From a virus: a DNA stretch of 64,000 nucleotides. The stretch covers positions 120,519 to 184,518 of the IMG/VR virus record IMGVR_UViG_3300045988_112927; one strand, 5' to 3'. Positions 24,032 through 26,342 of the stretch are shown here, one piece after another; position 1 is the first letter of the stretch, and each line of letters opens with the position of its first letter. A model generated the notes under the pieces. That model searched no databases and was not told the DNA's origin. It saw only the letters and a program-made list of their open reading frames with translations. The position numbers were made by a program, and so were the translations under genes.

Positions 24032-24272
24032 GAGGTTCTATATGAGCATTTGCGGTGGATGCCCTTATCCATTTGAAGCAGTACAAAGTGGAGAATATGA
24101 AACTGAAGAAGAAGCCTGTAGTGGCGGTTGCGATTTTGAAGATGCTGCATATAGGATGTCTTGGTCATATGACCAACTATATGAAAGATACAAAAATCTA
24201 TTAGACGAGCATAGAGCATTAGAACAAAAATATGCCGCTTTACAATTAAAGATGGAGGATGATTTAAGATGA
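23997..24272 (+). CDS. hypothetical protein
   Basis: 91-aa ORF that overlaps its neighbours by a few nucleotides. Confidence 0.3.
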   Translation: MEKNTLSESYVRRFYMSICGGCPYPFEAVQSGEYETEEEACSGGCDFEDAAYRMSWSYDQLYERYKNLLDEHRALEQKYAALQLKMEDDLR

Positions 24273-24679
24273 TAAATTCATTTAGTGATGAATATGAATT
24301 TTTAAGTAATTTCTACGCTCATCCAATCCAAGAGGGGAAATTAACATTCCCAACTAACGAGCATTACTTTCAAGCAATGAAAACTCTTGACCTTGAAGAG
24401 AGAATAAACATTGCGCGAGCTGCTACTCCGGGCAAAGCGAAGAGACTTGGTCGTAGCGTTAAGTTAAGAAGTGATTGGGAGGAGATTAAACTTTCAGTTA
24501 TGGAAACTGCGCTCCGTAAAAAGTTCGCCGACCCTGTACTTGCCGCAAAATTAAAGGCAACTGGAGAAGAAGAGTTAGTAGAAGGTAACTGGTGGAATGA
24601 CAGATTCTGGGGTGTTTGTAATGGTGTTGGAGAGAACAACCTTGGAAAGCTTCTTATGAAAATAAGGGGTGAGTTATAG
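24269..24679 (+). CDS. NADAR (YbiA/DUF1768) domain protein
   Basis: FLSNFY...NEHYFQAMK...GKAKRLGR...DW...KF...LVEGN..DRFWG..NGVGENNLGKLLMKIR. Confidence 0.6.
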   Translation: MINSFSDEYEFLSNFYAHPIQEGKLTFPTNEHYFQAMKTLDLEERINIARAATPGKAKRLGRSVKLRSDWEEIKLSVMETALRKKFADPVLAAKLKATGEEELVEGNWWNDRFWGVCNGVGENNLGKLLMKIRGEL

Positions 24680-24690
24680 AAAATAAATTT

Positions 24691-24732
24691 TGGGAAGCAA
24701 CTATCATATAGTAAGAAGTTGACTTCCCTTTT
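24691..24732 (+). terminator. terminator-like hairpin
   Basis: GGGAAGCAACTATCATATAGTAAGAAGTTGACTTCCC followed by TTTTTT. Confidence 0.45.
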
Positions 24733-24761
24733 TTGATTTTTATTAAAAAATATGATATAAT
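24733..24761 (+). promoter_or_regulatory. Consensus promoter repeat P12
   Basis: TTGATTTTTATTAAAAAATATGATATAAT. Confidence 0.65.
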
Positions 24762-24786
24762 ATATATGTAAGATGAAGAAAGAGAG

Positions 24787-25143
24787 ATGATATTTATGTT
24801 TTTTCATAAAATTTTCAAACGAGAAGAAGATAAAAAAATAGTTCCAAGAGAAGATTTATTAAATCAGGCTCTTGAGCTTGGTGAAGAGTATGAGGCTTGG
24901 ATTAAAAAATGTCAAGATGAATACCTCTCTGAATTTGATAAAGAAATTTTGAAAGCCGCAAGAAATGGTGAAAAGCGTGTTATATCTTTCAGATATGATG
25001 AATATAGTGAGCCATGGCAGACTAAAGAGCTATTAAATAGAGTTAAAGAAAAATATAAAACAAAAGGTTTTGATGTTGAAGAAGTGCGTCCTTATTCAGA
25101 CCATATTGATACATGGTTAAGAATAACCTGGAATAATAAATAA
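24787..25143 (+). CDS. hypothetical protein
   Basis: 118-aa ORF. Confidence 0.35.
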   Translation: MIFMFFHKIFKREEDKKIVPREDLLNQALELGEEYEAWIKKCQDEYLSEFDKEILKAARNGEKRVISFRYDEYSEPWQTKELLNRVKEKYKTKGFDVEEVRPYSDHIDTWLRITWNNK

Positions 25144-25159
25144 AAGTGGAGGTGTTAAA

Positions 25160-25585
25160 ATGTTAGATAGAGAACCAATGAAAGTATCGAAAGCTATGGA
25201 ATTGGCTGGCAAGTTTTATGATGAAAAAACATATGCTCACGCAATGAGAGTTGCGAGTTATGTTGCTGCTAATATGACAATTCCTCACGAGTATAGAGAT
25301 GAATGTGTTGCTCTTGCAATTATGCATGATTTGTGGGAAGATACTGATTGCCCAAGGGGTGGAGTTCCTGAAAACTTTGGAAAAGCTTTAGCGCTTTTAA
25401 CCAAAGAAAAAGGAGAAGATTATGCTGAATATTGTAAACGAATTAGACCAGTAGATGGATTAGCTTATCAGAATTGCGCCTACTGGGTTAAATTGGCTGA
25501 TATGAAAGACCATTTAACATTAACTGAAACTTTAACAAATAAAAGAAAGGCAAAATACTTAGCCGGCATGGCAGTATTATTGTAA
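25160..25585 (+). CDS. HD-domain protein resembling RelA/SpoT-type (p)ppGpp hydrolase
   Basis: AHAMRVASYV and ALAIMHDLWEDT (H...HD..ED). Confidence 0.5.
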   Translation: MLDREPMKVSKAMELAGKFYDEKTYAHAMRVASYVAANMTIPHEYRDECVALAIMHDLWEDTDCPRGGVPENFGKALALLTKEKGEDYAEYCKRIRPVDGLAYQNCAYWVKLADMKDHLTLTETLTNKRKAKYLAGMAVLL

Positions 25586-25586
25586 G

Positions 25587-26342
25587 GTGATACATATGAC
25601 TTTTGAAGAGAGAATAGATAAATTAAATGAGCTTGTTGCTAAATCCAATCATATTGTTTTCTTCGGTGGAGCAGGAGTTTCTACTGAGAGCGGCATCCCG
25701 GACTTTAGAAGCAAAGATGGTTTATATAATCAGCATGATGTACAGTTTGACCAGTATTCACCAGAGTACTTATTAAGTCATAGCTGTTTAAGAGACCATC
25801 CAGATGTATTTTTTGAGTTTTACAGACAGAAGTTAGATTGTAGAACAATCGAACCTAATGTTACTCATAAGGTTCTGGCTGAGATGGAAGCCGCAGGTAA
25901 GTTAGCTTGCGTTGTAACTCAGAATATTGATGGATTACATCAGAAAGCTGGAAGTAAGACTGTTGCTGAATTACATGGTACAACTTTTGAGAATTACTGT
26001 CCAAAATGCGGCGAGCCATATCCGGCAGATTATATCTTTGAATGCGGCGAAGCTATCCCATATTGCAAACATTGTGGTGATATTGTGAGACCTCGTGTGA
26101 CTTTATATGAGGAGAATCTACCTGAAGCTGATTGGAATTTAGCAAGTTATCATATGCATAATGCTGATTTAATCATCGTAGGTGGCACATCATTATCAGT
26201 ATATCCGGCCGCTAGTTTAGTGGTAGGTAGAAGTTGTCCTATTGTTTTAATCAATAGAGATGAAACTGATATGCCTCGATTAAAAACAGCAGTTGCTTTT
26301 AATGAAAGCTTAGGTGAAGTATTTGGAAAAATCAAATATTGA
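25587..26342 (+). CDS. Sir2-family NAD-dependent deacylase/ADP-ribosyltransferase
   Basis: GAGVSTESGIPDFRS, the zinc ribbon CPKCGEPY...CKHCG, and VTQNIDGLH. Confidence 0.75.
   Translation: MIHMTFEERIDKLNELVAKSNHIVFFGGAGVSTESGIPDFRSKDGLYNQHDVQFDQYSPEYLLSHSCLRDHPDVFFEFYRQKLDCRTIEPNVTHKVLAEMEAAGKLACVVTQNIDGLHQKAGSKTVAELHGTTFENYCPKCGEPYPADYIFECGEAIPYCKHCGDIVRPRVTLYEENLPEADWNLASYHMHNADLIIVGGTSLSVYPAASLVVGRSCPIVLINRDETDMPRLKTAVAFNESLGEVFGKIKY

Follow-up and report, generated by a model that had tools for sequence, protein, structure and literature searches.

The window is a 64-kb stretch of the genome (~190 kb) of a large uncultured gut phage whose host is probably a Lachnospiraceae bacterium. The interval from 24269 to 26342 carries four genes on the + strand, which encode a NADAR protein (24269..24679, 136 aa), an ORFan (24796..25143, 115 aa), an HD protein referred to below as the small alarmone hydrolase or SAH (25160..25585, 141 aa), and a Sir2 protein (25596..26342, 248 aa in the gene call). 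The preliminary description had placed NADAR, HD hydrolase, and Sir2 domains in this interval, and all three passed profile and structure confirmation at these positions and on this strand; its account of the gene content was incomplete in that the fourth gene, the ORFan, had been missed. Only 3 homologues of the ORFan were found in a protein collection of ~5.8 billion sequences, and its AF2 model (pLDDT 65) gave no fold match. The slot that it occupies is variable and holds a 184-aa membrane protein in close relatives.

Transcription units were predicted from a phage promoter motif that is present in 26 copies, all on the + strand, compared with 0.19 expected from shuffling. A promoter-like site (TTGATT-N14-TGnTATAAT, 20671..20699, + strand) heads a unit extending from RNase T and an RNA ligase to the NADAR gene; the RNA ligase (21581..22996, + strand) matched phrog_968 RNA ligase with 7.4e-65 and Pfam RNA_ligase with 8.4e-6. 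An exact copy of the motif (24733..24761, + strand) lies in the gap between the NADAR gene and the next gene and starts a second unit, comprising the ORFan, the SAH, Sir2, a YqeY-like protein (26707..27129, + strand, Pfam 2.3e-13), and a DUF488-N3a protein (27129..27509, + strand, Pfam 3e-16). This unit is closed by a terminator-like hairpin (28294..28323, + strand) whose 12-bp stem precedes a run of T, and the next promoter copy, at 28337, comes directly after it. Within the second unit, the SAH gene is preceded by the ribosome binding site GGAGGTG, and the ATG of Sir2 at 25596 is 10 nt past the SAH stop codon, which the Sir2 ribosome binding site overlaps; a GTG at 25587 is the less likely start. 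A Thg1-like 3'-5' nucleotidyltransferase (29758..30678, + strand, Pfam 8.4e-28) follows downstream, and an array of 15 tRNA genes is also present.

The NADAR protein matched Pfam PF08719 with E 4.5e-27 (95.7 bits, cut-off 35.1), the structure of E. coli YbiA (2B3W) with E 8.6e-26, and NCBIfam TIGR02464, a model named for riboflavin-intermediate N-glycosidase, with 83.8 bits (cut-off 73.7). The putative catalytic residues E31, K38, E105, D111, and W114 are all present. E31 and K38, a Glu and a Lys of the first helix spaced by seven residues, correspond to E36 and K43, which AdfN-T4 requires, and E31, D111, and W114 align with YbiA E48, D130, and W133, the Asp and Trp being residues of the NDxxWG motif. 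The YbiA subfamily is marked by a Glu in the last beta-strand, where BC4488/DarG1-type and gp30.3-type NADARs carry Asp or His (PMC11125620), and E105 (LVEG) aligns at this position with YbiA E125 (LVEH). By BLASTP, the protein is 47% identical over its full length to bas32_0066 (AdfN-Bas32), the sole NADAR of phage Bas32, with 124 bits and E 2e-42; identity to YbiA is also 47%, but with 98 bits. No DarT gene was found near the NADAR gene. The protein was assigned on these grounds to the ADP-ribosyl (guanine) N-glycohydrolase family, YbiA/AdfN-Bas32 type, as an orphan phage homologue of a validated AdfN.

NADARs reverse DarT1-type guanine ADP-ribosylation, and three DarTG1-sensitive phages are rescued by AdfN-Bas32, which neutralises DarT1 (PMC11825919). 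The earlier statement that NADAR domains reverse DarT-type modification was supported. All NADARs assayed to date hydrolyse guanine-linked ADP-ribose in vitro, on DNA or RNA, and E. coli YbiA, to which the window protein is equally similar by identity, gave no rescue of DarT1 toxicity in vivo (PMC11125620); NADARs are inactive on RNA that is ADP-ribosylated at phosphate ends. An anti-defence role of the window NADAR is plausible, with the failure of YbiA and the match to the riboflavin-intermediate model counting against it.

The SAH gave no Pfam match, even at E<=10, and the curated RSH hydrolase profile HD_4 (PF13328), which is matched by only some members of the Aph1 family, was among those without a match. 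The protein matched phrog_990, 'metal-dependent phosphohydrolase', with 1.4e-13, and a profile built from a family of 28 sequences found Aph1 (7SMG) as its best match (3.9e-8), followed by SpoT, Rel, and Mesh1; hhalign aligned the SAH with Aph1 with 97.3% probability and E 2e-11. The AlphaFold model is confident, with 8 helices in 141 aa arranged in a compact Aph1-like fold that is closest to solved SAH/RSH hydrolase domains. H27, H56-D57, E60-D61, and D114, the metal and catalytic residues, supply the H...HD...D ligands and the HDxxED motif; among the 28 homologues, H27, R30, H56-D57, E60, and D114 are invariant, and the E60-D61 motif is invariant or nearly so. Profile and model together identify the gene product as a RelA/SpoT-type small alarmone hydrolase with the (p)ppApp hydrolase Aph1 as its nearest relative. 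The SpoT-like hydrolase of the preliminary description was upheld in this respect, and its suggested action on cyclic nucleotides was not, as the fold argues against a cyclic-nucleotide phosphodiesterase.

The specificity signature of Aph1 consists of D24, R96, D116, R119, K133, and Y134 (PMC10083569), and the SAH lacks three of these six residues. The equivalents of K133 and Y134 are invariant in the SAH family, and the window protein has Arg in place of R96, a position that varies among family members. Glu or Asp stands where Aph1 has R119, D116 is not conserved, and the stretch D24-K25-A26 has been lost, leaving neither of the guanine-excluding residues of Aph1 (D24, R119). Because no RSH synthetase motifs or Pfam matches were found in the scanned ORFs of the 64-kb window, nor any RSH synthetase within 5-6 kb at ~123 loci with the 142-aa SAH family, the SAH was classed as an orphan; the scan covered 134 related loci in all, and its only hits were two long Rel/SpoT proteins, which served as positive controls. 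The same scans bear on the proposal that the SAH confers immunity to a (p)ppApp synthetase toxin carried by the phage itself, as Aph1 does to the MuF-fused Apk2. Its closest solved relative is indeed a phage-borne immunity protein, and the partner toxin is also missing for most Aph1 homologues; with no synthetase at any of the places scanned, this explanation was judged extremely improbable.

The SAH subfamily numbers at least 131 protein clusters and at least 91 matches in IMG/VR, of which the best 80 were kept as loci, and among cultured phages only 4 records were found at E<=1e-5. Outside uncultured gut phages, it occurs essentially only in Lachnospiraceae; most of its bacterial homologues come from Lachnospiraceae, Blautia, and other Clostridia. 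All five toxSAS tested are neutralised by stand-alone phage SAHs, and the toxSAS families FaRel, FaRel2, and PhRel2 occur in Firmicutes (PMC7229694). SAHs strip 3'-pyrophosphate from tRNA and can act as NADPH phosphatases; orphan SAHs and Mesh1 hydrolyse both NADPH and (pp)pGpp. The window SAH is probably a distant relative of the phage SAHs tested against toxSAS, and an anti-defence role is plausible for it. A bolder proposal, regarded as unlikely, is that the 142-aa SAH founds a distinct subfamily that strips 3'-pyrophosphate off tRNA CCA ends modified by toxSAS defences of the CapRel, FaRel2, or PhRel2 type. Such a subfamily would be related to Aph1, devoid of the adenine-specificity residues, and common in large gut phages and Lachnospiraceae. 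The SAH would then provide a dedicated tRNA 3'-end repair step in a phage tRNA-maintenance island, alongside the tRNA array, Thg1, RNA ligase, phosphoesterases, and a Pnk-like kinase, and would represent a new class of counter-defence in phage infection.

The Sir2 protein matched Pfam SIR2 with 1.7e-52 over profile positions 1-180 of 180, the Archaeoglobus and Thermotoga Sir2 structures with ~1e-40, and the equivalog model NCBIfam NF001752, 'NAD-dependent protein deacylase', with 280 bits (cut-off 221). The GAGxS and TQNIDGLH motifs, the catalytic His in ELHG, and the CxxC...CxxC zinc site are all present. The protein is on these grounds a canonical zinc-binding NAD+-dependent protein deacylase of the housekeeping type. 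The PADLOC defence SIR2 models gave no significant match, only faint partial ones of 40 residues (E>=5e-4), and the 248-aa protein stands alone, with no sensor domain fused or adjacent to it. A defence-type SIR2 NADase (ThsA, DSR1/2, SIR2-HerA, or SIR2-pAgo) was considered and rejected for want of a significant PADLOC match. The enzyme had been described as a countermeasure; as a deacylase of this type that consumes NAD+, it leaves an anti-defence role unsupported.

The arrangement of the genes bears on the original idea of one coordinated anti-defence cluster, in which NADAR, the HD hydrolase, Sir2, and a macro-domain protein would together oppose DarTG and Thoeris-type NAD/ADP-ribose signalling. 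The three genes lie side by side in the window, as they do in close relatives, one promoter class serves all of the genes, and the same island holds a DarG-like macro domain and a NARP1-like operon. Against this stand the promoter that parts NADAR from SAH and Sir2 and the survey of neighbours within 6 kb of the SAH at other viral loci (the best 80 of 91 IMG/VR matches), in which NADAR occurred at 0/80 and Sir2 at only 3/80; the trio is syntenic in close relatives only. The deacylase character of Sir2, the alarmone-hydrolase fold of the HD protein, and the position of the macro gene, 10 kb off in a different operon, also speak against it. This explanation was therefore considered very unlikely, and a coordinated cluster of NADAR, SAH, and Sir2 is unsupported.

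The trio sits inside a mosaic island of ~20 kb that holds NAD+/ADP-ribose and RNA-repair genes. The macro-domain gene (36527..37024, + strand), ~10 kb downstream of the interval, encodes an Adpp-like and DarG-like protein that scored 20.8 bits in Pfam, just under the cut-off of 22, matched DarG macrodomains and Poa1p in the PDB, and was also found by PADLOC DarG (6.9e-15) and the NCBIfam model of the DarG N-terminal region. It is preceded by genes for a short PRPS-like protein resembling Adps of NARP1 (34121..34903, + strand; family description in PMC13586617) and for a Namat-like nicotinamide ADPR-transferase (35012..36523, + strand), the latter having 9W5X and 9W5W, the structures of SpbetaL1 Namat (PMC12774641), as its best PDB matches (E 6e-117, versus ~1e-38 to 1e-47 for NAMPTs). 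Adjacent genes for a PRPS-like Adps, a protein that resembles Namat more closely than NAMPT, and a Poa1p-like macro domain suggest a NARP1-AP operon, and the macro protein is better explained as the predicted phosphatase of this NAD+ reconstitution operon than as a partner of the trio, the role it had been given before. The broader observation that the phage invests heavily in NAD+ and ADP-ribose metabolism was confirmed by the NARP1-AP-like operon, PncA, NadE, an NMNAT-like gene, and SLOG.

This setting also allows a reading as host takeover or auxiliary metabolism, in which the SAH would either suppress the stringent response by hydrolysing host (p)ppGpp or convert NADPH to NADH as a supply for phage NAD+ users, NADAR would be a YbiA-type N-glycosidase with soluble ADP-ribose derivatives or riboflavin intermediates as its substrates, and Sir2 would deacetylate host enzymes. 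The score of NADAR above the riboflavin-intermediate N-glycosidase cut-off and its identity to YbiA, the NADPH and (pp)pGpp activities of orphan SAHs and Mesh1, the translational closeness of the SAH to an NAD+-consuming sirtuin, and the loss of the guanine-excluding residues are all consistent with it, as are the neighbours of the SAH elsewhere, namely PncA-NadE at locus L039 and the NAD-dependent ligase LigA at 15/80 loci (best 80 of 91). No riboflavin genes were found in the window, however, the closest characterised NADAR by BLASTP is the anti-DarTG1 protein AdfN-Bas32 rather than YbiA, and most of the island is made up of genes for damage reversal and NAD reconstitution whose roles in counter-defence are known. 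The metabolic explanation was accordingly held to be on the unlikely side.

Following Iyer et al. 2022, the genes may instead serve RNA repair. The SAH would heal tRNA 3' ends bearing 3'-pyrophosphate or 3'-phosphate, Sir2 would resemble KptA and remove 2'-phosphate with NAD+, and NADAR and the macro protein would clear ADP-ribose by-products, with RNA ligase, Thg1, a Pnk-like kinase, and metallophosphoesterases as co-workers. NADAR and RNA ligase do share one predicted unit, SAHs are able to de-pyrophosphorylate tRNA, the tRNA array is at hand, and most viral sirtuins have been proposed as RNA-repair enzymes and NADAR associated with RNA repair (PMC9503650). At 15/80 loci (best 80 of 91) from ~6 lineages, Thg1 is found no more than 6 kb from the SAH, often directly adjacent to it, and the order Thg1-SAH-Metallophos-RNase T(-RNA ligase) recurs; Thg1, SLOG, and LigA are three equally frequent recurrent neighbours in other phages. 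The SAH loci belong to related phages, however, and shared neighbours may therefore reflect descent rather than function. The window Sir2 is, moreover, a cellular-type deacylase equivalog and not obviously of the distinct viral clade of Iyer et al., and the inactivity of NADARs on phosphate-end ADP-ribosylated RNA also counts against the scheme, which was rated quite unlikely.

The explanation favoured here, with confidence slightly better than even, is that the interval consists of four early-type genes of the mosaic island that form no dedicated three-gene module, each enzyme most likely acting alone. NADAR, SAH, and Sir2 are individually familiar kinds of enzyme. By analogy with AdfN-Bas32, NADAR would strip ADP-ribose from guanine in phage DNA, and possibly RNA, that had been modified by host DarT1-like ADP-ribosyltransferases. 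The SAH may be an orphan Mn/Mg-dependent 3'-pyrophosphohydrolase that reverses the products of host toxSAS enzymes, (p)ppApp or (p)ppGpp and/or 3'-pyrophosphorylated tRNA CCA ends, which would keep translation and ATP pools running. Sir2 would act as an NAD+-dependent deacylase that reprogrammes host or phage proteins, consuming NAD+ rebuilt by the neighbouring NARP1-AP and salvage genes without being a countermeasure itself.

The locus points to a large gut phage that gathers, in one early-expressed island, enzymes that reverse host abortive-infection chemistry, the chemistries countered being base ADP-ribosylation, NAD+ depletion, damage to tRNA, and pyrophosphorylation of nucleotides or tRNA. 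The window NADAR adds phages of Gram-positive gut anaerobes to the carriers of the validated AdfN-Bas32 type. The most useful lead is the SAH subfamily, which is nearly absent from cultured phages and unlike Aph1 in its base-recognition elements. The Sir2 result is a caution that a Sir2 match in a phage does not by itself indicate an NAD-signalling countermeasure.

Among known systems, AdfN-Bas32 of Escherichia phage IrisVonRoten is, like the window NADAR, a stand-alone 'naked' NADAR of ~140 aa encoded by a lytic phage without a DarT partner, and both carry, besides the catalytic Glu/Lys, the motif L[VI]EGNxWxDx[FY]WGVCxGxGxNxLG near the C terminus. They differ in host (probably a Gram-positive gut anaerobe for the window phage, E. 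coli for Bas32) and in neighbourhood, which is an RNA ligase unit in the window and nucleotide-metabolism genes in Bas32. YbiA (2B3W) has the equivalents of E48, D130, and W133, the last-strand Glu, and a passing TIGR02464 score in common with the window NADAR but is a chromosomal housekeeping or SOS-operon gene. Aph1 of Bacteroides caccae (7SMG) shares with the SAH the compact 8-helix HD fold of ~140 aa lacking helix 9 and the HD, ED, and KLxD motifs, whereas the SAH, compared with Aph1, carries two insertions and three deletions and is without the neighbouring synthetase toxin. PaSpo of Salmonella phage SSU5 and PbcSpo of phage PVP-SE1 are likewise orphan hydrolase-only RSH proteins of lytic or large phages, for which neutralisation of toxSAS was proposed and shown heterologously (PMC7229694); they probably belong to other SAH subfamilies, SSU5 and PVP-SE1 not being named among the 4 cultured-phage records. 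The cellular sirtuin deacylases (Sir2Af2, 1MA3; Sir2Tm, 1YC5; CobB/SrtN type) share all of the catalytic and Zn motifs of the window Sir2 (E ~1e-40), which differs in being phage-encoded and tightly coupled to an SAH gene. The window block and NARP1-AP (Adps-Namat-Adpp) both bring together PRPS-like, Namat-like, and Poa1p/DarG-like macro genes, but the window has the order Adps-Namat-macro followed by NadE, a promoter copy between Adps and Namat, and additional NMNAT-like and PncA-like genes in the island. SpoT, HD phosphohydrolase, DUF488, and Thg1 receive no mention in the survey of Iyer, Burroughs, Anantharaman, and Aravind 2022 (PMC9503650), whose large phages otherwise resemble the window in combining NADAR, Macro, SLOG, and sirtuin genes with NAD+ salvage and RNA repair in early regions.

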